64,000 nucleotides of DNA from a virus (lineage: Duplodnaviria > Caudoviricetes): IMG/VR virus record IMGVR_UViG_3300032330_001692, positions 29,829 through 93,828 of that record; one strand, given 5' to 3'. Made by a program: the position numbers and the translations under genes. The notes beneath the pieces were generated by a model, which did no database searches, was not told where the DNA came from, and was given only the letters and a program-made list of their open reading frames with translations. Shown here piece by piece: positions 17,438 through 33,064 of this stretch. Every line of letters starts with the position of its first letter. Position 1 is the first letter of the stretch.

Positions 17438-17594
17438 CTATGCAAGAATACCGCATTCAGTACGTAACCACTTACGGTAAGTTTACCACACTTGTACGTG
17501 CTGATTCACCAAACGAAGCACGAGACCGTCTCGTTGCTCAATTCAATCACGAAAACGAACTGCTGGAGATAACATCAGTTCAGAGGACCACCTG

Positions 17595-18476: not shown

Positions 18477-18551
18477 AAATCCTGTGTTGCGGTTTAGAGT
18501 GTTTTAGTTTATAATTTGTATTCGGTTGGGAAATCAATCGAATCCATATTT

Positions 18552-18635
18552 TAGCACATTAATTGACACTGGTGCCCCTTTTCTAGAGTGTCAGTAAACG
18601 TCGGCAGGGGAAATGTCGAGCAGGTTAGTGTGCTA
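18552..18635 (+). ncRNA. three-way-junction RNA with possible kissing loops
   Basis: 12-bp closing stem, two hairpins, CCCCT/AGGGG loop complementarity. Confidence 0.55.
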
Positions 18636-18641
18636 TACTAT

Positions 18642-18727
18642 GGAGTTTTATACCGTTAAGGAGACGGTTCCGGCTGTAACCCGGACGCGCTTGCGCTCTG
18701 ATGGATCGTTACCATCAAACTCCACCA
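18642..18727 (+). tRNA. tRNA-Tyr(GUA)
   Basis: class II cloverleaf, CCA. Confidence 0.85.
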
Positions 18728-18779
18728 CATCAAACAAGGAGTATATTATGTTATTTTAGATAAACTAAAGGAGCATGAT

Positions 18780-19133
18780 ATGTCTAGAACATACAAAGAC
18801 AAGCCCTATAAATTCATGAATCCTGAACAGGACTGGGAATATAGGCATACTGGCACTCCACATACCCGCGAGTATCGTGTATACTCCGAGGGTTGCTGGA
18901 AGTGGGTAGAGTACGATAGGGTTTACTGGCTAAAAAAGCCCGGCGTACTAACCAAGAAAAAGAAGCACAAGGACACTGAGCATCACTGGATGACTACTCC
19001 CAGCTGGTGGACACGTATGTATATGCGACGTCCGCAACGTGTTCGTGAGAATCAACAGCTTCGCAATATCCGTGATATTGACGAGTTTGACTTTGTGGAT
19101 ACTGGCCGCAAGCCACACATCTACTACTGGTAG
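18780..19133 (+). CDS. basic Trp-rich protein (MSRT...YYW type)
   Basis: aaggag RBS. Confidence 0.7.
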   Translation: MSRTYKDKPYKFMNPEQDWEYRHTGTPHTREYRVYSEGCWKWVEYDRVYWLKKPGVLTKKKKHKDTEHHWMTTPSWWTRMYMRRPQRVRENQQLRNIRDIDEFDFVDTGRKPHIYYW

Positions 19134-19323
19134 GCTATGAAAACAAATAAAAAGAAATACTGGTGGTATGTGTGGCAAAAGGCCATTGGTGACAAAGCAA
19201 GTGTTAGTGCGCAGGTATCAGACCATGTGTCCATTGTACGTACCTTCTTGGTACTAAGCTACCTGTTCACTAACTTCATAATCATACTAGGTGTGTGGCA
19301 TCATTGGTAAACGAAAGGTAAAA

Positions 19324-19647
19324 ATGTCTGTGTGGCGTGTGGCTCCGGCCAAAGAACATCCTGAAGCTGTGCTGGTTTCTTGGCGAGTATTTGAACTTGA
19401 AAACGGTGATCGACACTTTTGTGGCCGCGAAACTCTATATCGCGAAGGCCGAGTCACCAGCCGTGTAGTAAGCTTTGATCCCAAATCTCGGCAGGGCATC
19501 ACTCGTTCAAGCCGGTGCTATGAGCTGCAAGGCCCTCCAGGCCACAACGCAGATGCACTGTATGTGTGGGACTACTGGTGCCGCGTAAACGGCATTACAC
19601 AGTGCACAGACGTCACAGATCAGGTGTACGAAGAATTTACCCATTAA
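19324..19647 (+). CDS. conserved hypothetical protein
   Basis: RHFCG...GRVTS...GITRSSR-x-YEL-x-GPPG. Confidence 0.7.
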   Translation: MSVWRVAPAKEHPEAVLVSWRVFELENGDRHFCGRETLYREGRVTSRVVSFDPKSRQGITRSSRCYELQGPPGHNADALYVWDYWCRVNGITQCTDVTDQVYEEFTH

Positions 19648-19710
19648 ATTTTACACTTGCCGGCATGTTGCTTTTCAGTTATAATAATTCTTTGAAAATA
19701 CAAACACACC

Positions 19711-19983
19711 ATGAAATTTCGTGAAAAAACGGTTGAGATAGAAGCCATTGAATTTGTTTATACCGGAGGCGGACTTCAAGCTTTGCGCGAATTTTGTGGT
19801 GATGCCCTGGGTTACGTAAACAAGGCCAGGCACATCAATGCCAAAGCAGAAGCTGAGATTAAAAATGTCTACTCAGGCATAACATACGTTGCCGTAGAAG
19901 GTGACTGGATCGTCAAAAATGGCTCCGGTCATTTTCACAACTGTGATCCTCAAACATTTTGGAAAACCTATGAGCCAGTATGA
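19711..19983 (+). CDS. conserved phage protein (VEIEA...GDWIV...C-x-P-x2-F-x2-TYE family)
   Basis: motif; own promoter. Confidence 0.7.
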   Translation: MKFREKTVEIEAIEFVYTGGGLQALREFCGDALGYVNKARHINAKAEAEIKNVYSGITYVAVEGDWIVKNGSGHFHNCDPQTFWKTYEPV

Positions 19984-20182
19984 TCGTTTTGAGCATGAAC
20001 AGCAACTCATGCGTTGTTGGCAAATCACTGATGACCTACAAGTGTTGGCAGAAGGTGTTCTAGAAGGCAGCATGACCACTGATGATGTGGCAAATGTACT
20101 GCAGGGACTGCAACAGCTGTATGCACTAAAGTTTGACTCCCTGTGGAACAGCTTTGAAGCATCAATTCAAATCCGCGACTGA
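19970..20182 (+). CDS. hypothetical protein
   Basis: DRFE-x-EQQLM-x-CW motif. Confidence 0.65.
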   Translation: MSQYDRFEHEQQLMRCWQITDDLQVLAEGVLEGSMTTDDVANVLQGLQQLYALKFDSLWNSFEASIQIRD

Positions 20183-20246
20183 GTGTGATGGAAGCACGCT
20201 AGGCTCATAACCTAGAGGACCTGTTCGATTCAGGAGTTCGCAACCA
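20174..20246 (+). tRNA. tRNA-Met(CAU), initiator-like
   Basis: C1:A72 mismatch, CAT anticodon, CCA. Confidence 0.75.
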
Positions 20247-20252
20247 GTTAAT

Positions 20253-20339
20253 CCGAGTGTAGGCTAGCCTGGTCAAGTCACTCCGTTTGGGGCGGAGAGC
20301 GTAACTGCATCGCAGGTTCGAATCCTGCTACTCGGACCA
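20253..20339 (+). tRNA. tRNA-Pro(UGG), long variable region
   Basis: CTCCG-TT-TGG-GG-CGGAG, CCA. Confidence 0.85.
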
Positions 20340-20431
20340 ATTAAAAAAGCAGCATAAGCAGCCTTAGCATAACAACACAGTCTATCTGCGCATAGTCTAA
20401 GTTCCGCTGTATCTAGGCTGCTTTTTTAATT
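20339..20431 (+). ncRNA. stem-closed inter-tRNA RNA
   Basis: 15-bp terminal inverted repeat. Confidence 0.45.
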
Positions 20432-20439
20432 GTGTTATT

Positions 20440-20513
20440 CTCTCCTAAGTGTTCCGGTAGCACAAGTGACTCCAAACCACTTGGACGCGGTTCGATTCCG
20501 TGAGGAGAGGCCA
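20440..20513 (+). tRNA. tRNA-Trp(CCA)
   Basis: cloverleaf, G73, CCA. Confidence 0.8.
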
Positions 20514-20658
20514 ATAATTAAGTACTATCAAGGTATCGTGTGCAGACGTGTACACTACTCGGGCGCAACTGGCGAGGAAAGCGTCCTGATATAACTGATT
20601 AGTCGCTGTGGGATGAAAGCATCAGACCCCTAAATAGATCAGATAGTATTTAATTATT
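20513..20658 (+). ncRNA. stem-closed inter-tRNA RNA
   Basis: 17-bp terminal stem fills the whole spacer. Confidence 0.55.
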
Positions 20659-20732
20659 GGGCGTGTAGTATAATGGGATTACGGCGGCTTTGCAAGCCGT
20701 TTATGGGAGTTCGATCCTCCCCATGTCCACCA
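20659..20732 (+). tRNA. tRNA-Ala(UGC)
   Basis: G3-U70, TGC, CCA. Confidence 0.9.
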
Positions 20733-20857
20733 CCATTTTCAGTCAGCTTCAGCTCACAAGGCTAAGCTGATTTTTCTGTCTCTAAATTTTAACAACTGCA
20801 TTCAGGCTATTAAACAATGATGTAAAAATCTAGTTAGTACCATACAGGGAGCCGATT

Positions 20858-21079
20858 ATGGCCGAAAATGACATCGCACTTGCAACCGCTGTTACCGTAG
20901 CCGTCTTGCAAGAAAAAATCTCAGCGTTGGAAGACCATCTCCATCGCAGTGACTCTAAAATCAAAGCCCTAGAAAAAGATCGAGACAACGCCATCAAGTG
21001 GGGTCTCATGATCCTAGGAACCGCGGTAGTTTCCATGGCTTCGTGGATATTCAAGTTGATTACAGTGAAAGCACCGTAA
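20858..21079 (+). CDS. coiled-coil plus C-terminal TM protein (XhlA/holin-like)
   Basis: architecture only. Confidence 0.5.
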   Translation: MAENDIALATAVTVAVLQEKISALEDHLHRSDSKIKALEKDRDNAIKWGLMILGTAVVSMASWIFKLITVKAP

Positions 21080-21176
21080 TTTTTCTCTTGAACCTCGACC
21101 CTAAATCACTTACAATAATCTCTTAGAAATCGAAATCAAGCGTGCCCCACAGGGCACGCTACCCTGAGGTACTACT

Positions 21177-21287
21177 ATGAAACCCCGTAATTTTGTAACC
21201 AAGCACATGCAGCGCACTGGCGATGGCTCACATCGCAAAACAAACAAACAGCTGCGTCAAAAACAGAAACGCGAGCTGTTCCAGTAG
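21177..21287 (+). CDS. 36-aa basic peptide
   Basis: gaggt RBS; MKPRNFVTKHMQRTGDGSHRKTNK... Confidence 0.55.
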   Translation: MKPRNFVTKHMQRTGDGSHRKTNKQLRQKQKRELFQ

Positions 21288-21292
21288 ACGCT

Positions 21293-21366
21293 GGGCTCGT
21301 AACTTAAAGGTAAAGTAACTGGCTTTTAACCAGTAAAAGAAGGATCGTTACCTTCCGGGCCTACCA
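21293..21366 (+). tRNA. tRNA-Lys(UUU)
   Basis: cloverleaf, CCA. Confidence 0.85.
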
Positions 21367-21367
21367 A

Positions 21368-21496
21368 TGTATGTATATGTGAATTTCTCCACCACACCGG
21401 CTCACGACCACCGTGGTTCAGCGCAAAAGTTCGTGAGACCGATGCGTGGTATACAAGGGCTTGAAACCCCAAGTGGGATCTTCACATATGCACACA
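21368..21496 (+). ncRNA. stem-closed inter-tRNA RNA
   Basis: ~16-bp terminal stem plus internal stems. Confidence 0.55.
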
Positions 21497-21498
21497 GT

Positions 21499-21572
21499 TG
21501 GGGGTTAGTTAAATGGTATAACCACGGATTTTGATTCCGTTGTCAAAGGTTCGATTCCTTTACCCTCTGCCA
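21499..21572 (+). tRNA. tRNA-Gln(UUG)
   Basis: cloverleaf, G73, CCA. Confidence 0.85.
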
Positions 21573-21632
21573 GAAATATTCACTTGATTCAACCGGTGTT
21601 TTAGTTTATAATCTTTTCCTAACAGGAAAACT

Positions 21633-21752
21633 ATGTATTTCAAAGAACGTGAATCAGATCCACGAGCAAATCAAGAACACAACAAGCGTGAGCGCGAGCT
21701 CAGTGCAGAACGCATGAAGCGGGTTGCTGCACTCCGCAAGTCTAAGCGGTAA
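21633..21752 (+). CDS. 39-aa charged peptide
   Basis: promoter plus agga RBS. Confidence 0.5.
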   Translation: MYFKERESDPRANQEHNKRERELSAERMKRVAALRKSKR

Positions 21753-21757
21753 TCTCC

Positions 21758-21833
21758 ACCCGATTAGCTCAGCTGGTAGAGCACACGCTTGATAAGCGTT
21801 AGGTCGCTGGTTCAAGTCCAGCATCGGGTACCA
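21758..21833 (+). tRNA. tRNA-Ile(GAU)
   Basis: canonical cloverleaf. Confidence 0.92.
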
Positions 21834-21914
21834 ATATGGGTGTTTCAAGGTTGCGCAGATGGGCGCAGATAAAAACTTAATCTAGAGTGAATCGTCTTTT
21901 CTCTAGGCCCACCC

Positions 21915-22052
21915 TCCATTAGAGTACACATAGGCGCACACCTTATATAGTGCGGTCGTGCTAGCACACGGCAACAAACATTGCTAGATGGGGTACTTAT
22001 AGCCTGAATTTATAGTAGGGCATATCGACCCAAGACCTGTGTGTACTCTAAT
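21915..22052 (+). ncRNA. stem-closed inter-tRNA RNA
   Basis: 20-bp stem TCCATTAGAGTACACATAGG/CCTGTGTGTACTCTAATGGA, running 3 nt into the next tRNA. Confidence 0.55.
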
Positions 22053-22154
22053 GGAAGAGTTGCTAATGTTGGCCTTAGGGAGACCCTTATAAAGTCTTTA
22101 AGCCCTCACCAGATAAGTGAGTGTACGTGGGTTCGATTCCCACCTCTTCTACCA
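22053..22154 (+). tRNA. tRNA with UAU anticodon (Ile) and long variable arm
   Basis: CT-TAT-AA loop, CTCAC/GTGAG extra arm, T arm, ACCA. Confidence 0.75.
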
Positions 22155-22162
22155 GATTTAAT

Positions 22163-22246
22163 GCGCGAGTGGTGTAATGGTAGCCACGCTGGTCTTAGAA
22201 GCCAGTGCCGTGAGGCGTGAGAGTTCGAGTCTCTCCTTGCGCACCA
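22163..22246 (+). tRNA. tRNA-Leu(UAG)
   Basis: class II cloverleaf. Confidence 0.92.
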
Positions 22247-22256
22247 CCCTAATAAG

Positions 22257-22331
22257 GGCCTATTCGTCTAGTGGTCAGGACGCCGGGTTTTCATCCCGTA
22301 AAGAAGAGTTCGATTCTCTTATAGGCTACCA
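22257..22331 (+). tRNA. tRNA-Glu(UUC)
   Basis: cloverleaf, CCA. Confidence 0.85.
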
Positions 22332-22398
22332 ACCAAAATATTGATTTGATTTCAGTGTTAAAACACTCTATAATTGTTTTAACAAATCAGGAAATCAG

Positions 22399-22707
22399 TT
22401 GAGTAAAAAGTACACAATCACTGCCGTTATCTACGACAAGCGGGGCAACGTGCTTAGTCTAGGAAAGAATAGTTATCACAAGACTCATCCACTGCAAGCA
22501 CACTACGCAGCGGTGGCCGGAGAACCGCATAAAATGTTTCTTCACGCTGAAATTGATGCCATTATCAAGTGCCAGGATTTAACTCGGGCTCACAAACTTG
22601 TTGTCTTTCGGTATCGTGAAGACGGTTCTCCGGCCTTGGCCCGGCCGTGCAGAGTGTGTCAGGCTGCTATTCAGAAAACTCCCATTAAAATCATCGAGCA
22701 TACTTAA
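22399..22707 (+). CDS. zinc-dependent deaminase-fold protein
   Basis: HAE...PCRVC. Confidence 0.8.
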   Translation: MSKKYTITAVIYDKRGNVLSLGKNSYHKTHPLQAHYAAVAGEPHKMFLHAEIDAIIKCQDLTRAHKLVVFRYREDGSPALARPCRVCQAAIQKTPIKIIEHT

Positions 22708-22943
22708 TGTACGATTCGGCACATCAAACTTACAAAATTGAATTGACCATCTACGACGACTTTCGATTGCCTCCAGCACACGAGCTGGAACGTTGGATCC
22801 GTTACATGGTTGAAAGCGCAGGCAAGATTGGCTGTGACTGTTCGGTGACTGCACAGCCACGAGAAATTAACATGCAGGAACGTGTACAGCGCGCTGGACC
22901 ACGCAAATTTAAACCATACAATTCCGGAGTAGCACAGCGGTAG
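22707..22943 (+). CDS. hypothetical protein (3' end overlaps tRNA-Asn)
   Basis: TAATG coupling. Confidence 0.5.
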   Translation: MYDSAHQTYKIELTIYDDFRLPPAHELERWIRYMVESAGKIGCDCSVTAQPREINMQERVQRAGPRKFKPYNSGVAQR

Positions 22944-22997
22944 TGCAGTTGACTGTTAATCAATTGGTCGTAGGTTCGATCCCTGCCTCCGGAGCCA
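22923..22997 (+). tRNA. tRNA-Asn(GUU)
   Basis: canonical cloverleaf. Confidence 0.92.
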
Positions 22998-23003
22998 CGT
23001 AAC

Positions 23004-23078
23004 GCGTCCCTAGTATAGTGGAAAATATCCAAAGCTACGAACTTTGAGACGGGAGTTCGATTCTCTCGGGACGTACCA
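23004..23078 (+). tRNA. tRNA-Arg(ACG)
   Basis: cloverleaf, CCA. Confidence 0.88.
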
Positions 23079-23092
23079 CACAGAAAGCAACT

Positions 23093-23308
23093 ATGAGTTT
23101 TGATGCCTGGAGTCTAAACTGTCCCCGCTGCGGGCCAGCTCATAAATTGGTTCCTGACTCTACAGCATGTGCTGAGATTGCCGGCGACTGTTACCAGTGG
23201 TGCTGGTATGAGTGCGCAGTTTGCAAGTTTGAAACTGAAAGTGAACAAGCCATAAACGGCGATGCCCAAGTTTGGGAACTGCTTTATAAAAAATACCTGG
23301 TAGAATAG
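23093..23308 (+). CDS. Zn-ribbon protein
   Basis: CPRC...CAVC. Confidence 0.55.
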   Translation: MSFDAWSLNCPRCGPAHKLVPDSTACAEIAGDCYQWCWYECAVCKFETESEQAINGDAQVWELLYKKYLVE

Positions 23309-23373
23309 CACAGCGGTAGTGCACGGCTCTCATACGGCTGGGGTCGTAGGTTCGAATCCTACTTTTACCACCA
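23299..23373 (+). tRNA. tRNA-CAU (elongator Met or Ile2)
   Basis: cloverleaf, CCA. Confidence 0.85.
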
Positions 23374-23385
23374 CACATACTAATC

Positions 23386-23685
23386 ATGCGAAACACACTA
23401 ATCATCAACGGTTGCACTCTGGAGCGTACTTGCTATGCTTGTCCTGAGCAGTACGATGTTTTCTTTCAGGACTTTCAGATCGGTTACCTGCGTTTGCGTC
23501 ACGGTAGATTTACCGCTGATTATCCAGACTACGGAGGTACTACAGCATATCATGGTTACCCCAAAGGTGACGGCATTTTTGAAGACGACGAGCGTTTCTT
23601 CTTTTTGCGTGAAGCGGTAGACTCCTTAATTCAAACGCACAACACACAGCTCATAGAGCGCATGGATGCTCCTGCGTACGATTGA
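23386..23685 (+). CDS. conserved phage hypothetical protein
   Basis: TC-x-ACPEQYD...GYLRLRHG. Confidence 0.75.
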   Translation: MRNTLIINGCTLERTCYACPEQYDVFFQDFQIGYLRLRHGRFTADYPDYGGTTAYHGYPKGDGIFEDDERFFFLREAVDSLIQTHNTQLIERMDAPAYD

Positions 23686-23800
23686 AATTTTTATCTTGAA
23701 TTCTTCGCAAATTCCTGTATAATAATGTAATGGGTTGAGAGATCGATCCAGAGCTTCACTAGCGTAATTAGTGGTAATGACTGTGATACTTAATCAGTCA

Positions 23801-23964
23801 ATTAAGTTAAGCGTCTGCTGTAGCGAGGCGATCAGTTACTTCATACTATAGAGAAAGGTTAATCCTTGTGGTTAACCAAAGCGGTAAAATAATTCGGCGT
23901 GCCGCGATAGACAAAACCCGATAAAACCTGAGAACACACATTCTCAGCGGACGCTTAACTTAAT
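23801..23964 (+). ncRNA. Y-RNA-like element A
   Basis: 20-bp terminal stem, GTTACTTC at 23835, immediately upstream of Ro60 gene. Confidence 0.65.
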
Positions 23965-23989
23965 CTTTTTAACTACGAAAGAAACCAAA

Positions 23990-25312
23990 ATGTCTAGCCT
24001 AAACAAGCGCGTGTATGCTCCTCAAGCCCGTGCTGTAAACCATGCTGGTACTGCTGTGCGCGCTATCACTCCAGAAAAGCAACTGGTGCGCATGACCCTA
24101 GCTAATATGCTTTGGGAAAACCAATTCTACGTCAACGGAGAAAAATCCGCTGACGTGATCGCCAAGTTGGTGCAACAGTGCGATGCCCAGTTTGTTTCAA
24201 ACTTGGCCATCATGGCACGTACGCAATTCAAACTGCGTCACGTTCCACTACTGTTGACCCGAGAACTGGCACGCACTGGCCGCCTTGCGGCACATGTGCT
24301 CAACGCTGTAATCCAGCGTCCGGACGAAATGTCCGAGTTCCTGTCAATCTACTGGCGGGACGGCAAGACCCCTATCGGCAATCAAGTCAAGCGGGGTCTT
24401 GCAACTGCTTTTGCAAAGTTTTCGGAATACGCACTTGCAAAGTGGGATAAGAACAGCAGCGCAGTCCGGATGCGTGATGTAATGTTCTTGGTGCATCCGA
24501 AGCCTGAGAGCCCTGCTCAGGCTGCACTGTTTAAGCGCGTTGCCGATAACGCGCTCAAAACCCCAGATACCTGGGAATCGGAACTCTCAGCTGGAGCCGA
24601 TAAACGTGAAACGTTTACTCGACTGATGCAAGAGAAGAAGCTGGGAGCTTTGGCATTTTTGCGTAATCTGCGCAACATGACCCAAAGCGGCGTTCAGGAC
24701 TCTCAGATTCGTGAGTACGCACAGACTCTAGATGTCACAAAGGTTCTGCCTTTCCGTTACATCGCAGCAGCCCGTATTGTTCCCGAATATGAGGATATGC
24801 TGGAACAGCTGATGTTTCGCAGCCTAGAGTCACACGAAAAGCTGCCTGGTGTAACCAAGTTGTATGTGGATGTATCAGGCTCCATGTTTGGTACTAAGAT
24901 TTCTCAGAAGTCAGACTTGGAGCGTTTCGACGCTGCTGCTGCTTTAGCCGTGCTGTGCAGAGAAATCTGCGAAACGGTTGAAATCTACAGTTTCTCGGAT
25001 CGTGCTGTGCGTGTACCACCTCGCCGTGGTTTTGCCCTAGTTGAAGCAATTCGCCAGTCACAAGCACACAACGGTACCAACTTGGGGCGTTCGCTAAACT
25101 CCACTGGATCGCCTTGCGATCGAGTGATTGTGTTTACCGATGAACAGTCACACGACCGTCCGGGTAAGCCCGGGTTCGGTGCTAAGGGATACATTGTTAA
25201 CGTAGCAGCCTATGAAAATGGTGTAAATCACGACCACTGGCTGACTATTTCAGGATTCTCTGAAGCCATCGTTGACTATATTCAAGCCGTTGAAAAGGAC
25301 GTAAGTCCTTAA
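23990..25312 (+). CDS. Ro60/TROVE-vWA RNA-binding protein (Rsr-like)
   Basis: LRHVP, IQRPDE, EYALAKW, HPKP, TWE, AFLRNLRN, LPFRY, vWA DVSGSM, TDEQ. Confidence 0.93.
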   Translation: MSSLNKRVYAPQARAVNHAGTAVRAITPEKQLVRMTLANMLWENQFYVNGEKSADVIAKLVQQCDAQFVSNLAIMARTQFKLRHVPLLLTRELARTGRLAAHVLNAVIQRPDEMSEFLSIYWRDGKTPIGNQVKRGLATAFAKFSEYALAKWDKNSSAVRMRDVMFLVHPKPESPAQAALFKRVADNALKTPDTWESELSAGADKRETFTRLMQEKKLGALAFLRNLRNMTQSGVQDSQIREYAQTLDVTKVLPFRYIAAARIVPEYEDMLEQLMFRSLESHEKLPGVTKLYVDVSGSMFGTKISQKSDLERFDAAAALAVLCREICETVEIYSFSDRAVRVPPRRGFALVEAIRQSQAHNGTNLGRSLNSTGSPCDRVIVFTDEQSHDRPGKPGFGAKGYIVNVAAYENGVNHDHWLTISGFSEAIVDYIQAVEKDVSP

Positions 25313-25596
25313 CTGGAGCAAGGCGATAAGCAAGAGCTCGTACTAATATTTAGCGGTATACCTTATCATTACTAACGCTAAATTACCTTAGTACTGCCGC
25401 GGTGGCAGTGTCCATCCACCAAGTAGTGCGAAAACTACTAAAAAATCCACGCTAGGAACCGCAAGCAGCCGGTCAGAGCAAGAGAGTGGTCAGGACGAAT
25501 ATGTACAAGAGTAGCATGTAGAGTTGCGTACACAACTCGAGGGCTTGAATTCTCTTGCCGGCGACACCGGCTATGTCCTCTAAACTGCAAGGTTTA
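25296..25596 (+). ncRNA. uncharacterised multi-stem RNA
   Basis: ORF-free, at least five hand-found helices. Confidence 0.5.
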
Positions 25597-25671
25597 GAAA
25601 AGTGTATGTTGTCGGATGCGGTTACTTCTTTAGGCGAAAAAACACCGCATCAATTTGTTACTACACTTTTC
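25597..25671 (+). ncRNA. Y-RNA-like element B (minimal)
   Basis: GAAAAGTGTA/TACACTTTTC and GATGCGGT/ACCGCATC stems, GTTACTTC. Confidence 0.7.
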
Positions 25672-25672
25672 C

Positions 25673-25780
25673 AAGCCTTGACGCTGTTATTGGTTACTTC
25701 ATAGGTTCGATTCCTATATGCGGTTACATACTGCGTATAGCTGCAATGGCGCAGCACACCAATACAAATTTTTCAGGCTT
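25673..25780 (+). ncRNA. YrlA-like Y RNA (element C) with permuted tRNA domain
   Basis: GTTACTTC, T arm, closed acceptor stem, D arm, terminal stem. Confidence 0.8.
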
Positions 25781-25788
25781 CCATTTAC

Positions 25789-25890
25789 GTCTTAGTGTTT
25801 TACACAGTTACTTCTCTTACCATAAAATTCTGGCCTTACAGCTTGAATCAAGAAATGCCGCATAGGCGCTCTGTGTTTTTTGTTCTAGAC
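25789..25890 (+). ncRNA. Y-RNA-like element D
   Basis: ACACAG/CTGTGT stem, GTTACTTC, GTCT/AGAC closure. Confidence 0.6.
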
Positions 25891-25912
25891 TCCTTTAACT
25901 ACCACCATTACC

Positions 25913-26095
25913 ATGACCATACGAGTAATCAAAGCAGCAGTTCGTGAAGTAGCCTGCCAACATTGTGGCTCTCTGTTAGAGTACAGTCCCAGTGACGTGC
26001 AAGAAGCTTGGCATGAAGACTACTTAAACGACGGTACCTGGGTACCGTATATTGAGTGCCCTGAATGTGAAAAACATGTCCGACTCACACACTGA
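25913..26095 (+). CDS. Zn-ribbon protein
   Basis: CQHC...CPEC. Confidence 0.7.
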   Translation: MTIRVIKAAVREVACQHCGSLLEYSPSDVQEAWHEDYLNDGTWVPYIECPECEKHVRLTH

Positions 26096-26261
26096 CCTAG
26101 TTTATCGACTGCAAACTCGTGCAGAAATTCGCCGGCAGATTCCAACCAGAAAGTCTGTTCAGGAAAACAAACCTGACCGTATAGCAGACTTACTGGAAGA
26201 AGCTGCTCAGCGCATTCAACAACTGGAAGCTGCGTTGCAAGGTGCAACAAGGGCTTGCTAA
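26076..26261 (+). CDS. conserved phage hypothetical protein
   Basis: RAEIRRQIPTRKSVQENKPDRIADLLEEAA. Confidence 0.7.
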   Translation: MSDSHTDLVYRLQTRAEIRRQIPTRKSVQENKPDRIADLLEEAAQRIQQLEAALQGATRAC

Positions 26262-26268
26262 GCCACAT

Positions 26269-26365
26269 AGAGTGATGGGTGAGCTGGTTTAAACCACCTT
26301 CCTGCTAAGAAGACGTTTCGGGCACAAACTCGGGGCCGAGGGTTCGAATCCCTCTCACTCTGCCA
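26269..26365 (+). tRNA. tRNA-Ser(GCU)
   Basis: class II, G73. Confidence 0.88.
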
Positions 26366-26388
26366 AAAGGCATCGTTTATATATCAAA

Positions 26389-26481
26389 GGAAAGTTGGCA
26401 GAGTCCGGCTTATTGCACTAGTCTTGAAAACTAGCGGATCAGCGATGGTCCCGATGGGTTCGAATCCCTCACTTTCCGCCA
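26389..26481 (+). tRNA. tRNA-Ser(UGA)
   Basis: class II, G73. Confidence 0.9.
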
Positions 26482-26496
26482 CTAAAAGGAGTTAAC

Positions 26497-26706
26497 ATGC
26501 CTTGCATGAAATGTTCAAATGGCAAATACAAGTATGGTGAACATGGTAAATGTGTGTTTGATACCCTAACAGCCTGCAAACGTGCTGCTGCTGCTGCTAT
26601 TCACGTGCAAGACAAGTCTATAGACAGCGTAGAAGTCGCTACAAAAGATAGTTTTACAAAACTCTCCGGAAGTGTAACCCAACTGGGCCCCTCAAACTTG
26701 GCTTAA
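26497..26706 (+). CDS. hypothetical protein
   Basis: aaggag RBS. Confidence 0.65.
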   Translation: MPCMKCSNGKYKYGEHGKCVFDTLTACKRAAAAAIHVQDKSIDSVEVATKDSFTKLSGSVTQLGPSNLA

Positions 26707-26717
26707 AAAGCGTTAAC

Positions 26718-26975
26718 ATGAGCTATCACCTGTACAAAGAATTCCTGGAAAAGCACTACGAAAGCTTAGGTGAAAACAAAACCTTTGTGGTAGCTTGTTT
26801 CAGTGCACACAGCGGAGAGCTACAACAAGCTGTAGTGTACGCAAAAACAGAGCTACAGGCATTTTGCACATTTCTGAAAACAGACTATGCAAATACAACT
26901 GCATTACAAGAAAGTTTAGCCGGTGCAGATATGTGGATTTCTGCACTAGAAATCAATAACACGTTGACCGAGTGA
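26718..26975 (+). CDS. hypothetical protein
   Basis: ORF. Confidence 0.55.
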   Translation: MSYHLYKEFLEKHYESLGENKTFVVACFSAHSGELQQAVVYAKTELQAFCTFLKTDYANTTALQESLAGADMWISALEINNTLTE

Positions 26976-27031
26976 CTAGGTGGTTGGCTGCAACCCTTCC
27001 CAGACTGGTTGAAATCCAGTACGTGTTTCCA
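26958..27031 (+). tRNA. tRNA-Cys(GCA)
   Basis: U73, GCA loop; weak anticodon stem. Confidence 0.7.
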
Positions 27032-27042
27032 GAAAGACTACT

Positions 27043-27201
27043 ATGAAAACAAACTTGTTTAATGCTCGTCATCGTGGGCGGCACGGCCCAGGCGGCTGGC
27101 GCTGTCACTGTTGTGGCCCTGCTCCCAGTCACCGAGCAAGTTTTGCACGCTTGCACAAGCGTTTCATTTATCGTGTTTTGGATCGCCTGGAACACGAATG
27201 A
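27043..27201 (+). CDS. 52-aa basic Cys-containing peptide
   Basis: GPGGWRCHCCGP, read by eye. Confidence 0.55.
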   Translation: MKTNLFNARHRGRHGPGGWRCHCCGPAPSHRASFARLHKRFIYRVLDRLEHE

Positions 27202-27285
27202 TTGTACTGTTTCCAGAACCCGTACCACACTACTTGGTGTGGTATTTCGACAATCACGGTTTCGTGCATTGTTTTCAACTTTAAT

Positions 27286-27361
27286 GCGTGTGTAGCTCAA
27301 TTGGTAGAGCAGCTCGTTGCCAACGAGCAGGTTGCAGGTTCGAGACCTGTCGCCCGCACCA
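27286..27361 (+). tRNA. tRNA-Gly(GCC)
   Basis: cloverleaf, CCA. Confidence 0.88.
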
Positions 27362-27364
27362 TCT

Positions 27365-27441
27365 GCGTGGTTAGTGTTCAACGGCTAGCATCTTTGGTTT
27401 CCACCCAAAAGGAAAGGGTTCGAATCCCTTACCCCGCACCA
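27365..27441 (+). tRNA. tRNA-Gly(UCC)
   Basis: cloverleaf, CCA. Confidence 0.85.
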
Positions 27442-27449
27442 CTTACGAG

Positions 27450-27524
27450 AGTTCCTTAGCTCAGAGGCAGAGCAACGCTTTTACACGGCGAAGGTCGGGA
27501 TCTCGGAATTCCCAGGAACTACCA
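27450..27524 (+). tRNA. tRNA-Val(UAC)
   Basis: cloverleaf with atypical T loop. Confidence 0.8.
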
Positions 27525-27525
27525 T

Positions 27526-28143
27526 ATGTTAACTGATGACAACTCTGCTTGGCTGACCTTTCCACAACACAGGCTGTGGTTCAACAAACTGTGGCTCAGC
27601 GAAACTCTGGGCTACGATTGCGGGCCAGGCGGCGTTCCAGTAACCAAACCGGGGGTTTATGTTGTGCGGCCTGTGTACAACTTGCGCGGCATGGGCTTAG
27701 GCGCACGGCTAAAGTACCTGACTCCACACGACACTCACACTGTGCCTCCAGGCTATTTTTGGTGTGAGCAGTTTTTGGGTACACAACACAGCATTGACTA
27801 CACATGGGATAAGGGTTGGCAGCAAACGCAAGCCTTTGAGGGCTGCAACGAGCCAGATCAGCTATACCGATTTACCAGCTGGACTCGTTCCAGTCACCAA
27901 ATCGAGTTGCCGGCTGCATTTGATGTGTTGCAAGACTGTGAACACATCAACGTTGAGTTTGTTGGCGGCAAGATCATAGAAGTACACTTGCGTGTATCTC
28001 CTGATCCTCAAGACTACCATCACTTGATACCTGTGTGGAGCGACGAACTTTTGTTGATGCCACCAGGCTACACTTGGATCGCCAGTGAGGACAGTGCAGA
28101 CGGCTTGCTGCCCAGCACACGACTAGGATTTTATGTAAAATGA
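27526..28143 (+). CDS. ATP-grasp-like phage protein
   Basis: NKL-x-LS-x2-LGY-x-CGP, VRP-x2-NL-x-GMG, INVE...IIEVHLR. Confidence 0.65.
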   Translation: MLTDDNSAWLTFPQHRLWFNKLWLSETLGYDCGPGGVPVTKPGVYVVRPVYNLRGMGLGARLKYLTPHDTHTVPPGYFWCEQFLGTQHSIDYTWDKGWQQTQAFEGCNEPDQLYRFTSWTRSSHQIELPAAFDVLQDCEHINVEFVGGKIIEVHLRVSPDPQDYHHLIPVWSDELLLMPPGYTWIASEDSADGLLPSTRLGFYVK

Positions 28144-28424
28144 GCATCAAATTCACCAGAATTAAAAAGTGCCTGGAACTAGATGACAAACTCGCCTTTG
28201 GTGCTCACTCCGGTAAAAGCATCAGCTACATGCTGGAGTTTGAGCCGGAGTACTTGTTTTGGGCAACAAAACAACCAAACTTGATTTTTCTGTGCCACAC
28301 AGCAGCCATAAGACTTGAAGAAAAAGCCACCCGCGCCAAACAGGAAAAAGAAAAGCACAAAGCAAAAGCCTACTATTACGCAGACACTGACCAAGACTCT
28401 TGGTTTGATGACGTGCCGTTTTAA
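28140..28424 (+). CDS. DUF3820/ExoX-C-terminal-like protein
   Basis: FG-x-H-x-GK...PEYL-x-W. Confidence 0.55.
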   Translation: MSIKFTRIKKCLELDDKLAFGAHSGKSISYMLEFEPEYLFWATKQPNLIFLCHTAAIRLEEKATRAKQEKEKHKAKAYYYADTDQDSWFDDVPF

Positions 28425-28483
28425 AGGCTTGAAACTCAACTCAATTTCGGATATAATTTATCTTTAGATAAATAGGAAATCAA

Positions 28484-28804
28484 ATGCGCAAAATGATTGT
28501 TCACCTGAGTGTTGGCTTTGCAGGCATGGATGCCTATGAAGCACTTCTAGTTGAAGACGATGCCACTGAAGACGAGATTGCACAAGAAGCCTGGCACATG
28601 GCCTTAGATCACGCTGAACGTTACGGCTACTATCCCACAGACGATTACAGCGAAGACGGCGAAGACGAAGATGATGGCGGCTGGGACCGGGATCATTACT
28701 CTCACAACATCGAAGGCTGTGCTGAAGACTACGATCCTGATCGTCACGACATGAAGCGTGCAGGCGGCGGCAGTTTCGAACTAGACTTTGCAGGCATGAT
28801 GTAA
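28484..28804 (+). CDS. highly acidic protein
   Basis: promoter plus RBS; D/E-rich. Confidence 0.7.
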   Translation: MRKMIVHLSVGFAGMDAYEALLVEDDATEDEIAQEAWHMALDHAERYGYYPTDDYSEDGEDEDDGGWDRDHYSHNIEGCAEDYDPDRHDMKRAGGGSFELDFAGMM

Positions 28805-28811
28805 TTGTAGT

Positions 28812-28887
28812 CCAACTTTAGCTGATGTGGTCATAGCGCTGGTTTGAAGCTCCAGTGAACTTGGTTCGATTCCAAGAGGTTGGGCCA
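28812..28887 (+). tRNA. tRNA-Phe(GAA)
   Basis: cloverleaf, CCA. Confidence 0.8.
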
Positions 28888-28991
28888 TAAGTTTAGTATA
28901 CGGTATAGCTCAGTTGAATAGAGCGAGTGATAAAATACTAGTTAGCACGTAGCGCGTCGGGTAAGAGCCGACTACCGTTTACTAAACTTAT
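28887..28991 (+). ncRNA. tRNA-like RNA with extended acceptor stem, no CCA
   Basis: ~19-bp stem, canonical D arm, T-arm-like hairpin. Confidence 0.6.
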
Positions 28992-29066
28992 GGTGCGTTC
29001 GTATAGAGGTTATTACTGCGGATTGTCTATCCGCTTACGCGAGTTCGATTCTCGCACGCATCGCCA
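28992..29066 (+). tRNA. tRNA-Asp(GUC)
   Basis: cloverleaf, G73. Confidence 0.88.
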
Positions 29067-29135
29067 AAATTTTGATCTTGAAGTGGAATCAAAATCTGTT
29101 TATAATTGAATCTTACAAACTGAAAAATCAACAAA

Positions 29136-29546
29136 ATGTCAGCACAACACTACGTTAATGCCATGCTTCCCTTTCAACATACAGCAATGTGGCCTTTTGC
29201 AGCAATGAGTGCAATTGCTCAGGACATTCAGCAAGAATGGGCCACGGCCGATGCATTGGACATCGGTGCTCTGGCTCAAGCAGAAAACATTCGCATTTGT
29301 CACAGTTTCGAGCCTGATGTTCCAGGCGGATTTACCCTTGCTTACCGCAAAGCCAATGAGTTCAATAACTGTCGCATGGTAGAAGTTGCTGTTGCCTACT
29401 GCTCACCTCACGATGTGTTCAGCAAGAAAGTAGGTGCTCGGCGTGCACTAGACAACTTCCTGGACGGTGCAACAGTGCTGGTACCTGCACGCACTGAAGG
29501 CGACCACAGCATTGTGTGGAACCTGCGCAGGATGTTTACCATTTAA
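29136..29546 (+). CDS. hypothetical protein
   Basis: VAYCSPHDVFSKKVG motif; own promoter. Confidence 0.7.
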   Translation: MSAQHYVNAMLPFQHTAMWPFAAMSAIAQDIQQEWATADALDIGALAQAENIRICHSFEPDVPGGFTLAYRKANEFNNCRMVEVAVAYCSPHDVFSKKVGARRALDNFLDGATVLVPARTEGDHSIVWNLRRMFTI

Positions 29547-29551
29547 TCACC

Positions 29552-29636
29552 GCCCCGATGGTGGAATAGGTAGTCACAGGAGACTTAAAATCTCCCGCTT
29601 TCGGGTGTGCCGGTTCGAGTCCGGCTCGGGGTACCA
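29552..29636 (+). tRNA. tRNA-Leu(UAA)
   Basis: class II cloverleaf. Confidence 0.92.
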
Positions 29637-29662
29637 ACTAATTTAACTCAATCTAACCTAAA

Positions 29663-30094
29663 ATGAATCGCCTATTTACTGCTGTGACCCTAGCCGCTGC
29701 ACTAACCTTGGCCGCCTGCGGCCCAGATCGTGCTCCACAAGACATTGTGGACACCAACATGACCATTTCGCGTTTGAATGCTCAAAAGAACGCAAACAGC
29801 TACTTTCCTCAAGCCTGGCCAGAAGGCACTGTACACCCTGTGTGGAATGCAAAGCCTACTCGTATTTTAATGCAGTCAGACTCCAGCATTACCCCACAAT
29901 GCCGTTACGGTGACGGCTGGGCCAGTGGCGATCTACAATTTGACAACGGCAAGTCAATCAAGATCAAGTGCCAAACCAATGGTGTTGGCAAAGGCATCAA
30001 CGGCTGCATGCAAGAAGTGGAATTCCAAACCAAGTCGTACAAAGACGAAGACGGCAAGTGTGCCAATCTCAACAAGCTGGAGAAGTTCCAGTGA
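29663..30094 (+). CDS. lipoprotein
   Basis: signal peptide with LAAC lipobox. Confidence 0.8.
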   Translation: MNRLFTAVTLAAALTLAACGPDRAPQDIVDTNMTISRLNAQKNANSYFPQAWPEGTVHPVWNAKPTRILMQSDSSITPQCRYGDGWASGDLQFDNGKSIKIKCQTNGVGKGINGCMQEVEFQTKSYKDEDGKCANLNKLEKFQ

Positions 30095-30196
30095 TGGGTG
30101 ATTTAGCAGCAGCTCTTGTATTCTTATTCGGTATTCTAGTGGGAACAGGCCTGGGCTGGTTTGCACGCTACATCCGCAGCAAGTTCCACTAACAGT

Positions 30197-30270
30197 GGTG
30201 AGGATAGTGTAATGGGAGCACCGTTGTCTGTGAAACAACTAGACTGAGATCGAAACTCAACCTCACACCA
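30197..30270 (+). tRNA. tRNA-His(GUG)
   Basis: GTG loop, encoded G-1, A73. Confidence 0.75.
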
Positions 30271-30370
30271 CACAAGCCACCTCAGGGTGGCTTTTTGTTT
30301 TGAAAATTTTAACTTGAACCCGCGGCCTCTTTAGGCTATAATAGATCTTTCACCCACAACAACCACAACA

Positions 30371-30688
30371 ATGAACGAAACAACCTATCAATTTTACTTT
30401 GGCCCTGTTACACCTGAAAATTCAGAAGACCTTGAAAATTACTTTCAAGACAAAAACGGAAACAGTTTTTACTACAAGATTGTGGTAGAAGAAGACATGT
30501 TTTACATCTACGATACTTGCAGCCGCATGATTCCAATTGACCGTGAGTTTGTGCAGAGCTTTGGCACCGCAATGTTTGGTGTAGAGGGTGTGTACAGTGC
30601 AGCCAGCGAAGCCGAACAGCTTTTCAACAAGCGTATTCGTGAAGTCGAGGCGCTGGTAGACTACTGGAACACCGAGGACGGTGAATGA
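30371..30688 (+). CDS. hypothetical protein
   Basis: promoter upstream. Confidence 0.65.
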   Translation: MNETTYQFYFGPVTPENSEDLENYFQDKNGNSFYYKIVVEEDMFYIYDTCSRMIPIDREFVQSFGTAMFGVEGVYSAASEAEQLFNKRIREVEALVDYWNTEDGE

Positions 30689-31341
30689 GCACAGTTGTTT
30701 TAGTAGGTGTGACTCAACCACGGTTGCCAGGCGTTGAATCTGTGGAAGACTTGGTGGCGTATGCTGCCAGAGTCTCAAATCCAAGCAATCAAATGAATTC
30801 CGAAACAGCTCCAAAGCTGCTCCGTTACCTGATGAAGAATCAACACTGGAGTCCGTTTGAGATGGTTTCCCTAACCATGGAAATCAACACAACCCGAGAC
30901 ATTGCACGTCAAATCTTGCGTCACCGCAGTTTCGCATTTCAGGAGTTTTCTCAGCGGTATGCCAGTGCTGAATCGCTGGGCTTTGAAACTCGTGAGGCAC
31001 GTATGCAAGATTCAAAAAACCGCCAAGCCAGCTTGGAGACTACGGATCATGAGCTGCAGGACATGTGGCAGGAAAAGCAGCTTGAATTGTTGCGCAAAAC
31101 TCGCGAAACATATACTTGGGCGCTCACAAACGGCATTGCAAAAGAACAAGCACGTGCTGTACTGCCTGAAGGCAACACTCAAAGCCGGCTGTACATGGCG
31201 GGTACTCTGCGCAGCTGGCTTCACTATTGTTTGCTGCGTACTGAGCTGGGAACACAAAAAGAGCATCGTGTGGTAGCAGAACAGTGTTTTGAGATCATCA
31301 AGCTGGAGTTTCCCAGTATTGCAGAACTGTTGGCAGCATGA
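30685..31341 (+). CDS. thyX: flavin-dependent thymidylate synthase
   Basis: HWSPFE, RHRSFAFQEFSQRY, EQARAVLP. Confidence 0.95.
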   Translation: MSTVVLVGVTQPRLPGVESVEDLVAYAARVSNPSNQMNSETAPKLLRYLMKNQHWSPFEMVSLTMEINTTRDIARQILRHRSFAFQEFSQRYASAESLGFETREARMQDSKNRQASLETTDHELQDMWQEKQLELLRKTRETYTWALTNGIAKEQARAVLPEGNTQSRLYMAGTLRSWLHYCLLRTELGTQKEHRVVAEQCFEIIKLEFPSIAELLAA

Positions 31342-31616
31342 AATTCACCAAAAGCAGTTACAATCCACTGGCAGAGATACTGGAACTGTTTCCTACATAC
31401 GCTCCTATGTTTGTGACTACTTTTGGCTTTGAGCAATTCAACAAATTGCTTCGGCAAGGAGGCGTTCACTGCCACTCCCAATCAGAAATGCTCCAATGTT
31501 TGGAAGTTTTAGAGTCACTGGGCGTATTAGAAGTAGAACAAGTTACACATAGTGGCAGCAACTACCTTAAAATAGGAAATAAATTAAATGGCAAAGACTC
31601 GCAGCAAAACAGCTGA
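31338..31616 (+). CDS. hypothetical protein
   Basis: ATGA coupling. Confidence 0.55.
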   Translation: MKFTKSSYNPLAEILELFPTYAPMFVTTFGFEQFNKLLRQGGVHCHSQSEMLQCLEVLESLGVLEVEQVTHSGSNYLKIGNKLNGKDSQQNS

Positions 31617-31980
31617 AAATAACGCTCAAGTCTACAAGAGCTCACGTCGCTGGGAAACCAATCGCAAGCGCAGACTTGCTCGCGCACTCAAACGCAATCC
31701 AGAAAACACGCAAATTGAAACAGCCATGAAAAACATGGTTTATCGGCGCAAAACTCCCACAAATCGCGTGTGGTCACATTCCATGCGACGTCAAGCTGAA
31801 CTGTTTCAACGATTTGTAGGCCGAGTGTATTCAGACATGTTTTCTAGCAATGAAAAGCTGAGCGGGCCTGCACTCACCAGACCAGGCACAGCACAAAAAC
31901 AAAAACCTTTTGATCAAAGCCGTATGTTCTCCCTAGGCACGCGTGCTCACAACGGTGCAGGTGTAGCAGTATGGAGTTGA
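31588..31980 (+). CDS. basic hypothetical protein
   Basis: RBS; R/K-rich. Confidence 0.65.
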   Translation: MAKTRSKTAENNAQVYKSSRRWETNRKRRLARALKRNPENTQIETAMKNMVYRRKTPTNRVWSHSMRRQAELFQRFVGRVYSDMFSSNEKLSGPALTRPGTAQKQKPFDQSRMFSLGTRAHNGAGVAVWS

Positions 31981-32228
31981 TTGGGTGGTATGGGGTGTTT
32001 GCAGTTACCACCTGCATAGTTGCAGGCTTTGAACTATTCTGGCCTGTGCTTCGAAGTCTGCGCATAACACATCCAGAGTTGCTGATTGTAGAGAATGTAT
32101 GGCTCAGCATGCTGGTATTCCTGACCATGGCCTTAGTCTTGGCTCCACTAACCATTTTGCCTTGCGTTTGGCCACCCAGCGGTGAACGATTTCGCAAAAA
32201 GCTGTGGGAATCACTCTTAAAAGAGTGA
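31971..32228 (+). CDS. two-TM membrane protein
   Basis: hydrophobic segments. Confidence 0.6.
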   Translation: MELIGWYGVFAVTTCIVAGFELFWPVLRSLRITHPELLIVENVWLSMLVFLTMALVLAPLTILPCVWPPSGERFRKKLWESLLKE

Positions 32229-32292
32229 AATTTTGCAGTTGCAGAGTGTGGGTGTTTCGTTTATAATATTTACTTACTCGGAGATCATTCAA

Positions 32293-32568
32293 ATGAAGTT
32301 CGCAGCGTTTAAATATACTGACACCAAAGGCAAAATCTCTCAGCGTAAACTGCTGGTGCTGGATCAGCCCTCAAACAAACTCACTGGCATCGACGTCACG
32401 GAACTGGAACCAGTTCAAGCACAGCAACTGGCTCGTGAGTACGATCGACTGCTGGATGCATTCCGCCAGTCAGTGCTGGAATTGTACACCGACTTTGATG
32501 TTGAGCACAACTACCGTCAGTTCTTGCAAGCCAAGATTGAAAGCCTGGAAGTCGTTCAGGCTTATTGA
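32293..32568 (+). CDS. hypothetical protein
   Basis: promoter plus ggag RBS. Confidence 0.7.
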   Translation: MKFAAFKYTDTKGKISQRKLLVLDQPSNKLTGIDVTELEPVQAQQLAREYDRLLDAFRQSVLELYTDFDVEHNYRQFLQAKIESLEVVQAY

Positions 32569-32640
32569 AAAACTAGGGTCAGCACGGTGGGACGTGCAGG
32601 TAGACAATACTGCATACAAGGTTCGAATCCAAACTCTAGG

Positions 32641-32940
32641 CACGATGGTTGTAATTCCCCTGAAACGAATGTGAGCAAGACGCGGGTTCGACTCCCGCCA
32701 GGTCCACCAGAAGTACTTTTGTCCATGGAGTTGGGAACGGATAGATAAACCGTGAAAGTATTTCTGATGGGCCTGCCCAGGTTTCGATTGCGCAAGCTAG
32801 TGGATGGAGCAACTCGGTAGGCGATGACCGTAAATCAAGCAAAACACAATAAATGCAAACGATAGCATTTTTGCTGTAGCGGCCTAAAAAACTTGCACAG
32901 CTGAGGTTTTGGCCGGTTCCTTATCAAAGAATACCGGCCC
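32641..32940 (+). ncRNA. ssrA: circularly permuted two-piece tmRNA, tag (A)ANDSIFAVAA
   Basis: acceptor piece ends CAGGTCCACCA (32709); coding piece starts GGGCCTG (32769) with G3-U70; tag ORF 32855-32887. Confidence 0.9.
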
Positions 32941-32941
32941 T

Positions 32942-33060
32942 TTAGAATAACGCTAATGTGAAGGGACTCCGTGCACGGTGAGCCTGGATCTGAGTCAGCG
33001 AGTTGATAGTTGGAGTGGACTGACCCACAAAGAGTAACTATCGAATTGGCGTTATTCTAA
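32942..33060 (+). ncRNA. stem-closed RNA between tmRNA and tRNA-Thr
   Basis: 16-bp terminal stem, internal hairpins. Confidence 0.5.
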
Positions 33061-33064
33061 AGAA

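Follow-up and report, generated by a model that had tools for sequence, protein, structure and literature searches.

What fills the long gaps between the transfer RNA (tRNA) genes of a phage tRNA array? The question is raised by a 64,000-nucleotide (nt) stretch of viral DNA (the window; Caudoviricetes), which covers positions 29,829 to 93,828 of the 93.8-kb IMG/VR virus record IMGVR_UViG_3300032330_001692. The array occupies 17.3-33.2 kb of the window and contains 23 tRNA genes called by ARAGORN, two tRNA genes recognized by Rfam only and a permuted two-piece transfer-messenger RNA (tmRNA), all on the + strand. Seven segments adjoining these genes (C1 to C7), referred to here as cassettes, are each closed by a long terminal helix. 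The cassettes are best regarded as newly found examples of the T5-type stable RNAs, which are already annotated but unexplained; they form no single family and are not Y RNAs. They are probably self-folding spacer RNAs that are co-transcribed with the tRNAs and released as stable RNAs as in T5, with cargoes that have separate jobs.

The initial annotation had listed seven intervals with long terminal stems. These were confirmed by folding and by a helix scan, which give a terminal helix of 13-21 pairs in each cassette. The helices are A/U-rich. When helices of at least 15 pairs with at most one mismatch and at most two G·U pairs, enclosing 35-170 nt, were counted, 13 were found in the window, compared with 0-5 (mean 1.8) in 10 first-order Markov simulations, an enrichment of about sevenfold. 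All eight window helices with at least 18 pairs fall within 20338-33062. Relative to dinucleotide shuffles, six of the cassettes have fold z scores of -3.65 to -7.0 and C1 is weaker (Table 1).

The position of the cassettes follows a simple rule. Junctions between tRNA-type genes that are free of open reading frames (ORFs) belong either to a short class (3, 5, 6, 8, 10, 10 and 23 nt) or to a long class (100, 104, about 115, 132, 145 and 218 nt), and all six junctions of the long class are stem-closed. The 5' ends of C2, C3 and C6 coincide with the A of the CCA of the upstream tRNA and C4 starts 2 nt past the CCA; C1 is preceded by a promoter-like site, C5 by a small structured element (X) and C7 by the tmRNA coding piece. 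The 3' ends of all seven cassettes lie 0-8 nt before +1 of the next tRNA, which in the case of C5 is an unannotated tRNA-like gene. The claim that such segments start near a CCA and end near the next +1 is thereby upheld for the starts of C2, C3, C4 and C6 and for all seven ends. The tmRNA, called by ARAGORN and by Rfam (RF04321/RF01850), has an intervening segment of the same design, as had been proposed, and its stem layout is repeated in the related loci L095 (8228-8316) and L091 (4506-4582); the segment alone is not unusually stable (z -0.6). Element X (21834-21914) and two stem-closed flanks of a Ro60 gene (23801-23964 and 25588-25680), the latter of the Y RNA class, had been overlooked. 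ORFs that overlap cassettes (e.g., 21367-21534, which runs into tRNA-Gln) were set aside as mechanical.

Table 1. Positions in the window of the cassettes and of other features of the array
Feature	Position	Strand	Setting or assignment	Helix, fold or score
C1	18543-18641	+	leader cassette between promoter-like site (~18482-18510) and tRNA-Tyr (18642)	17 Watson-Crick pairs and one wobble; z -2.0
C2	20338-20432	+	tRNA-Pro CCA to 8 nt before tRNA-Trp	18 pairs; z -4.5
C3	20511-20660	+	tRNA-Trp CCA to -1 of tRNA-Ala	19-20 pairs; z -3.65
C4	21366-21498	+	tRNA-Lys to tRNA-Gln	15 pairs; z -4.3
X	21834-21914	+	small structured element after tRNA-Ile	weak fold; z -1.7
C5	21913-22057	+	ends at +1 of tRNA-like gene 22052-22157	20-21 pairs; z -7.0
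tRNA-like gene	22052-22157	+	106 nt, bounds C5; read from sequence	long variable arm, good T-arm, CCA end
Ro60 gene	23990-25312	+	Pfam TROVE and Ro60 vWA
Y RNAs	23801-23964, 25588-25680, 25673-25780, 25783-25894	+	flank Ro60; different class from C1-C7
Model R1 match	25597-25669		training member	72.6 bits
Model R1 match	25673-25780		52-nt T-arm / hairpin / D-arm insert, YrlA topology	11.7 bits, E 0.22
Model R1 match	25783-25894			26.2 bits, E 1.5e-5
C6	28884-28994	+	tRNA-Phe CCA to -1 of tRNA-Asp	21 pairs; z -4.4
tmRNA acceptor stem and intervening-segment stem	32699-32775	+	permuted two-piece tmRNA	20 pairs; arms 32699-32719 / 32755-32775
C7	32940-33062	+	tmRNA coding piece end to tRNA-Thr	19-21 pairs; z -4.3

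The same design is found in related phages. The arrays of three relatives (G001, G002 and G003) carry 8-13 stem-closed cassettes per 14-20 kb stretch, with the exception of the second (14-kb) stretch of G001, which carries three. Across 25 loci, 124 cassettes with at least 16 pairs were identified, of which 40 abut an ARAGORN-called tRNA and 45 begin with CCA followed by two A/T bases. A loose stem consensus, (A)CCATAT..TTAG.A / ..ATATGG(T), is common to many of them. The helices are thus real, enriched and general to the phage group.

The helices are also selected at the RNA level, on the tRNA strand. Helices were re-detected from Watson-Crick pairs alone, with any mismatch allowed, and the interior positions that are not Watson-Crick paired were counted. 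G·T mismatches outnumber A·C mismatches 168 to 57 overall and 135 to 35 (p 5e-15) in stems with at least 17 Watson-Crick pairs, whereas base composition predicts a ratio of 0.99. This excess points to pairing in RNA.

Strong promoters on the + strand lie at 19657, 21584, 22346, 23696, 28429, 29078 and 30314, and the cassettes and tRNAs share promoter-to-terminator units. Of 338 tRNAs of the group, 66% have U at leader position -1 and 61% have A at -2, the bases that bacterial RNase P prefers there. Release of the cassettes as stable RNAs is plausible. RNAs of 80-150 nt would be freed if RNase P cut at +1 of the tRNA downstream and the tRNA upstream matured at its 3' end, possibly with a staggered RNase III cut in the helix as well. 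The paired ends would shield these RNAs from 3' exonucleases, matching RNA III of T5 and its fellow stable RNAs. As the CCA is often part of the helix, an endonuclease for duplex RNA such as RNase III would be the most economical release route, and at 15-21 bp the A/U-rich helices have sufficient length for it. A further probable role of the helix is to insulate the neighbouring tRNAs from misfolding or mispairing in the long precursor. The cargoes most likely serve separate jobs, and nothing points to the decoy or antitoxin-mimic roles that the initial annotation had suggested.

Constraint on the cargo can be judged from a close relative, L186 (IMGVR_UViG_3300027969_004545), which is syntenic with window positions 18972-31627 at 80-94% identity by segment. 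The ORFs of the two phages are about 94-96% identical. Five of the seven tRNAs in the segment show 93-100% identity, tRNA-Pro shows 54% and the gene at 20175-20242 shows 23%. C2, C3, X and C5 are kept in L186, C4 is replaced, and the core of C6 is swapped within an unchanged stem. Between the tRNA-like gene and tRNA-Leu, L186 carries a 600-bp insertion (3024-3625) with 68% similarity to part of G001.

C3 is the leading candidate for a conserved RNA that acts in trans. It is identical in L186 over 145 of 145 positions, and X over 81 of 81, as against the 94-96% of the ORFs. C3 homologues were identified in G001 (76% identity) and, more distantly, in locus L090; an exact-pattern scan of IMG/VR with the C3 core retrieved G001 and L186 only. 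C5 is 87.3% identical in L186, and 11 of its 18 differences fall in unpaired columns. The other differences amount to three pairs with full compensation, all in one inner helix, and a single one-sided change; no pair of an alifold helix is broken. In the terminal stem of C5, by our own reading, a T-to-C change in L186 turns one A-U pair into A·C, in a column that alifold left unpaired. C2 is 92.5% identical, and all seven of its differences lie in columns unpaired by alifold; its 3' arm ends in a T-run, which gives it a terminator-like look as well. The Lys-Gln junction of L186 holds an unrelated cassette in place of C4 (stem ACCATATTTTAACATA...; 34% identity), and no C4 homologue was found among about 160 related loci.

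The core of C6 is tRNA-like, with D-arm-like and T-arm-like hairpins. Its stem is unchanged in L186 and G001, each of which carries a different short core. L090 has the 50-nt centre of C6, which spans the stretch from the D-arm-like hairpin to the 'variable' region, at 94% identity, but at another junction and with a different T-arm and a different terminal stem; ARAGORN calls this copy tRNA-Phe(aaa). C6 itself received no ARAGORN or Rfam call as a tRNA in the window, and by our own reading has a loop UAAAAUA with A at 33, an anticodon stem with three of five pairs and an acceptor-like stem without CCA. It resembles a tRNA without qualifying as one. No match to the C6 core was obtained when IMG/VR was scanned for the exact pattern.

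For the outermost cassettes, equivalents in relatives were recognized by position. A stem-closed element precedes tRNA-Tyr, as C1 does, also in G002 (L184 5434-5547), but no conserved core was found by alignment of the pre-tRNA-Tyr elements of the window, G002, T5 and others, as these cores are not alignable. A stem-closed element directly after the tmRNA, the position of C7, is likewise present in relatives.

As far as these comparisons allow, the cargo is partly under selection for sequence or structure, namely in C3, X, C5, the C6 core and several families of the relatives. Core covariation, the absence of which would have suggested stems that only aid processing, was found in C3 (6 of 29 pairs), in C5 (the three compensatory pairs) and in cassette families present only in relatives (10 of 39 and 23 of 55 pairs), the last with conserved single-stranded motifs. 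A strong candidate for a novel structured RNA is a family of about 185 nt (L014 3368-3556, L102 2214-2409 and L184 6417-6600), in which 23 of 55 pairs covary; it has the conserved loops CUUGAGAC, GUCAU.AAC, CCUUAGCGG and GUAGUAAACA and follows tRNA-Pro in L014.

The description of the cassettes as one family was not borne out. The cores share neither sequence nor fold, they cluster into small orthologous groups only, and those of C4 and C6 turn over between close relatives. When the about 160 related loci were searched with blastn and nhmmer, C3, the C6 core and the Ro-flanking RNAs were the only elements with homologues. A cmscan of 17-34 kb with 4227 Rfam models at E <= 5 gave tRNA, tmRNA and chance-level matches only, and the relatives' cassettes at six loci had no Rfam match at gathering scores. 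In a megablast of the array against cultured phages, tRNA genes were the only matches.

It is possible, although on balance doubtful, that the helix alone matters, as an insulator and/or as an RNase III site like those of ribosomal RNA operons, and that the cores are neutral and are degraded. Such an arrangement would explain the C6 stem that is kept around swapped cores in the window, L186 and G001, the outright replacement of C4, and the lack of homologues for most cores beside a stem consensus spread across many cassettes. It would also suit RNA III of T5 (NC_005859, locus L185, 30278-30397), whose annotated ends lie within a 20-bp helix; by our own reading, 12 bp of helix and a 3' overhang of 2 nt are left, which may be the pattern of a staggered RNase III cut. 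Neutral cores are at odds with the conservation of C3 and X, which is like that of tRNAs where ORFs differ by 4-6%. Nor do they fit the compensatory changes seen within C5 (inner helices) and within families A5, A6 and A7, the conserved single-stranded motifs, or the C6 core, which is 94% identical in two phages with 67% identity in their Ro60 proteins. The T5 equivalents, moreover, are annotated as stable and not as degraded.

Several points weigh against the release of the cassettes as stable RNAs with cargoes of their own. In phages that are about 90% identical, C4 and the core of C6 have been replaced, as is expected of dispensable filler, and for five of the seven cassettes no homologue was found outside one close relative. 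In the case of cassettes from the window itself, covariation comes from two to three sequences. A recent recombination patch could account for part of the complete identity of C3 and X, because the tRNA-Trp, tRNA-Ala and tRNA-Ile beside them show 100% identity too. A CCA held in a duplex should hinder maturation of the upstream tRNA by RNase E or exonucleases, which makes the release pathway uncertain. The stability of the T5 RNAs is taken from the GenBank annotation only.

A rather unlikely variant treats the helix as a portable socket and the junctions as a platform for RNAs that are swapped by recombination between shared stem sequences in an integron-like manner, with accessory cargo such as tRNA-like decoys against host defences that target tRNAs. 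It is hinted at by the C6 stem with its three cores, by the C6 core in the other stem and junction of L090, and by the replacement of C4.

It is improbable that the cassettes act at the DNA level, as miniature inverted-repeat mobile elements or as recombination sites that shuffle tRNA genes, with no role as RNA. Their terminal inverted repeats do share a consensus in many copies, cassettes are replaced at fixed junctions, and the order of tRNAs varies among relatives. A DNA palindrome or mobile repeat is expected to have symmetric mismatches, and the G·T excess over A·C therefore makes such an element unlikely. The copies also have no shared internal sequence, and no transposase or integrase was seen in the array; among the array ORFs, no RNase, ligase, transposase or homing endonuclease was found with Pfam and PHROGs.

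Decay of former tRNA genes, with acceptor stems extended by chance, is a very improbable origin. C6 has its D-arm-like and T-arm-like hairpins in tRNA order and an ARAGORN tRNA as its L090 homologue, and tRNA-like species are also known among the T5 and T4 RNAs described below. C6 alone looks tRNA-like, however, and C2, C3, C4, C5 and C7 are without a tRNA signal in Rfam or ARAGORN. The anticodon-like region of C6 is its most conserved part (94%), at odds with decay.

The array also contains a Ro60 gene with flanking Y RNAs. A Ro-adjacent RNA family was collected by iterated nhmmer searches from 25588-25680 over about 160 Ro60 loci (L002-L163; IMG/VR and metagenomes). The 228 matches all lie on the Ro60 strand and adjoin the gene, with copies frequently arranged in tandem. 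They conform to the consensus stem - UGG(C/U)GAAG - stem - UUACUUC - loop - stem' - CGCUUGUUCC - stem', and 15 of 15 predicted pairs covary. This consensus contains the GNCGAAN0-1G and YUAY features of bacterial Y RNAs (Chen et al. 2014, PMC4201824). No Rfam family reached the gathering score on six Ro60 loci. A covariance model (R1) was built from 73 Ro-adjacent sequences and searched with filters off over 15-36 kb, where it matched only the three intervals given in Table 1. The motif GNCGAA occurs in the window at chance frequency (84 sites, 83.8 expected). About 275 nt without an ORF separate Ro60 from the Y RNAs downstream (25313-25587). Within them, 25399-25490 is conserved (72-82%) directly downstream of Ro60 in L088, L091, L093 and L008, and a stem-closed part around 25469-25570 contains GGUCAGGACGAA.

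The whole Ro60/Y module (23378-25909) is absent from L186, in which no more than about 10 bp separate tRNA-Met from the equivalent of 25910; to judge from this comparison, the module behaves as an accessory indel module. L186 keeps C2, C3, X and C5 without it, and the cassettes are therefore independent of the module. That the cassettes are extra Y RNAs or other partners of Ro60 is the least credible of the explanations, despite the Ro60 gene in the array, the end-closing helix of Y RNAs and their co-transcription with a tRNA in Deinococcus (PMC4201824) and the occurrence in C3 of CTGGCGAGG, which resembles the motif UGGCGAAG, since none of the seven cassettes matched model R1 at E <= 10, L186 retains several of them without Ro60, and no Ro60 gene is annotated in T5 24-46 kb, a region that holds such RNAs.

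The phage itself is, on sequence grounds, a distant T5-like phage. Its family-A DNA polymerase (41580-43871) has its best matches, at 49% identity, in Vibrio phage pVp-1 and relatives, which we take to be T5-like, and two relatives with complete genomes have about 105 kb and direct terminal repeats. The two tRNA genes at 20175-20242 and 27450-27521, with Rfam scores of 37.9 and 43.6 bits, respectively, are those without an ARAGORN call. The tRNA-like gene next to C5 is alignable to L186. It has UAU in an odd 9-nt anticodon loop and a weak tmRNA-clan match. By our own reading, in which homology is proposed without direct alignment, it corresponds to the 92-nt ARAGORN tRNA-Ile(tat) of L184, L102 and L014, which has a type-II shape that is unusual for Ile. 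Accessory genes around the array (15542-18044, 30685-31341 and 33156-33743) encode a UvdE UV endonuclease, a Dps/ferritin-like protein, ThyX and a ClpP-like protease, and the ClpP-like protease gene adjoins the tmRNA.

The T5 and T4 records annotate stable non-tRNA RNAs without an assigned function in their tRNA clusters, and the layout described here bears on them. The order of CCA, long helix, cargo and next tRNA is, in the tRNA arrays of T5-like phages, a general design that is selected at the RNA level. With dozens of covarying cassette families, the question of the stable RNAs becomes approachable by comparative genomics and T5 genetics. If some cargoes are decoys or regulators, tRNA arrays would also be platforms for accessory RNAs, beyond sets of tRNAs for codon supply or anti-defence. 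If not, the layout would still be a processing or insulation rule for long tRNA precursors, with a possible use in synthetic tRNA or guide-RNA arrays. A literature search on the T5 and T4 stable RNAs and on spacers of phage tRNA arrays found nothing relevant in the collection of papers that it covered.

Among the known systems, bacterial Y RNAs (YrlA/YrlB) have a helix that joins the 5' and 3' ends, and those of Deinococcus are co-transcribed with tRNA (PMC4201824). Y RNAs resemble the cassettes in their length of about 100 nt, their end-closing helix and a possible tRNA-like module, whereas the seven cassettes are without the GNCGAAN0-1G and UUACUUC motifs, fail model R1 and persist without Ro60. 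The intervening segment of permuted tmRNA is also stem-closed, extends from a CCA 3' end to +1 of the next piece and needs excision, but it amounts to a short loop, of about 35-60 nt, within a single RNA and not to a multi-helix RNA between tRNAs. In T4, the species 1 and 2 RNAs (rnaC and rnaD), which lie by tRNA-Arg where the tRNA cluster ends, are small and stable and are not tRNAs. Unlike the cassettes, they have no long terminal helix and belong to another phage family. rnaC is tRNA-like, with a T-arm (the T-arm-like hairpin referred to above) and a short closing stem, and rnaD folds no better than shuffles (z -0.8).

The closest system is T5 itself. Its record annotates eight misc_RNAs in the tRNA region (RNA I, III, IV, 1, 2, 2H, 3 and X), labelled 'stable RNA with unknown functions' or, for RNA1, RNA2 and RNA3, 'tRNA-like stable RNA'. 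No cassette resembles a T5 RNA in sequence: a blastn search of T5 24-46 kb with the cassettes (word size 7) gave best E values of 0.09-0.9, save for T-arm matches of the tRNA-like gene. Like the cassettes, the T5 RNAs lie in the tRNA region, on the tRNA strand and abutting tRNAs, with lengths of 73-172 nt (719 nt for RNAX), and some are tRNA-like, as C6 is. A CCA terminates both RNA I and RNA 3, and a T-arm is present in RNA 1 and in RNA 2. Between promoter P14a and tRNA-Tyr, T5 has a further element closed by a 19-bp stem (35427-35533), which is unannotated; it has the same position as C1 and may be a ninth small RNA of the region. The window differs from T5 in that its uncultured clade has more cassettes per array, with a loose stem consensus that starts at CCA, and in that its RNAs are predicted ones whereas those of T5 are annotated as stable. 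RNA III and RNA IV fold with terminal helices (z -2.85 for both), as the cassettes do. The comparison with T5 and T4 drawn in the initial annotation is therefore well founded, with T4 as the looser parallel and RNA III as an exact one: in its 20-bp helix, the 5' arm starts from the GCCA end of RNA I and the 3' arm runs into tRNA-His, which is the layout of the cassettes.

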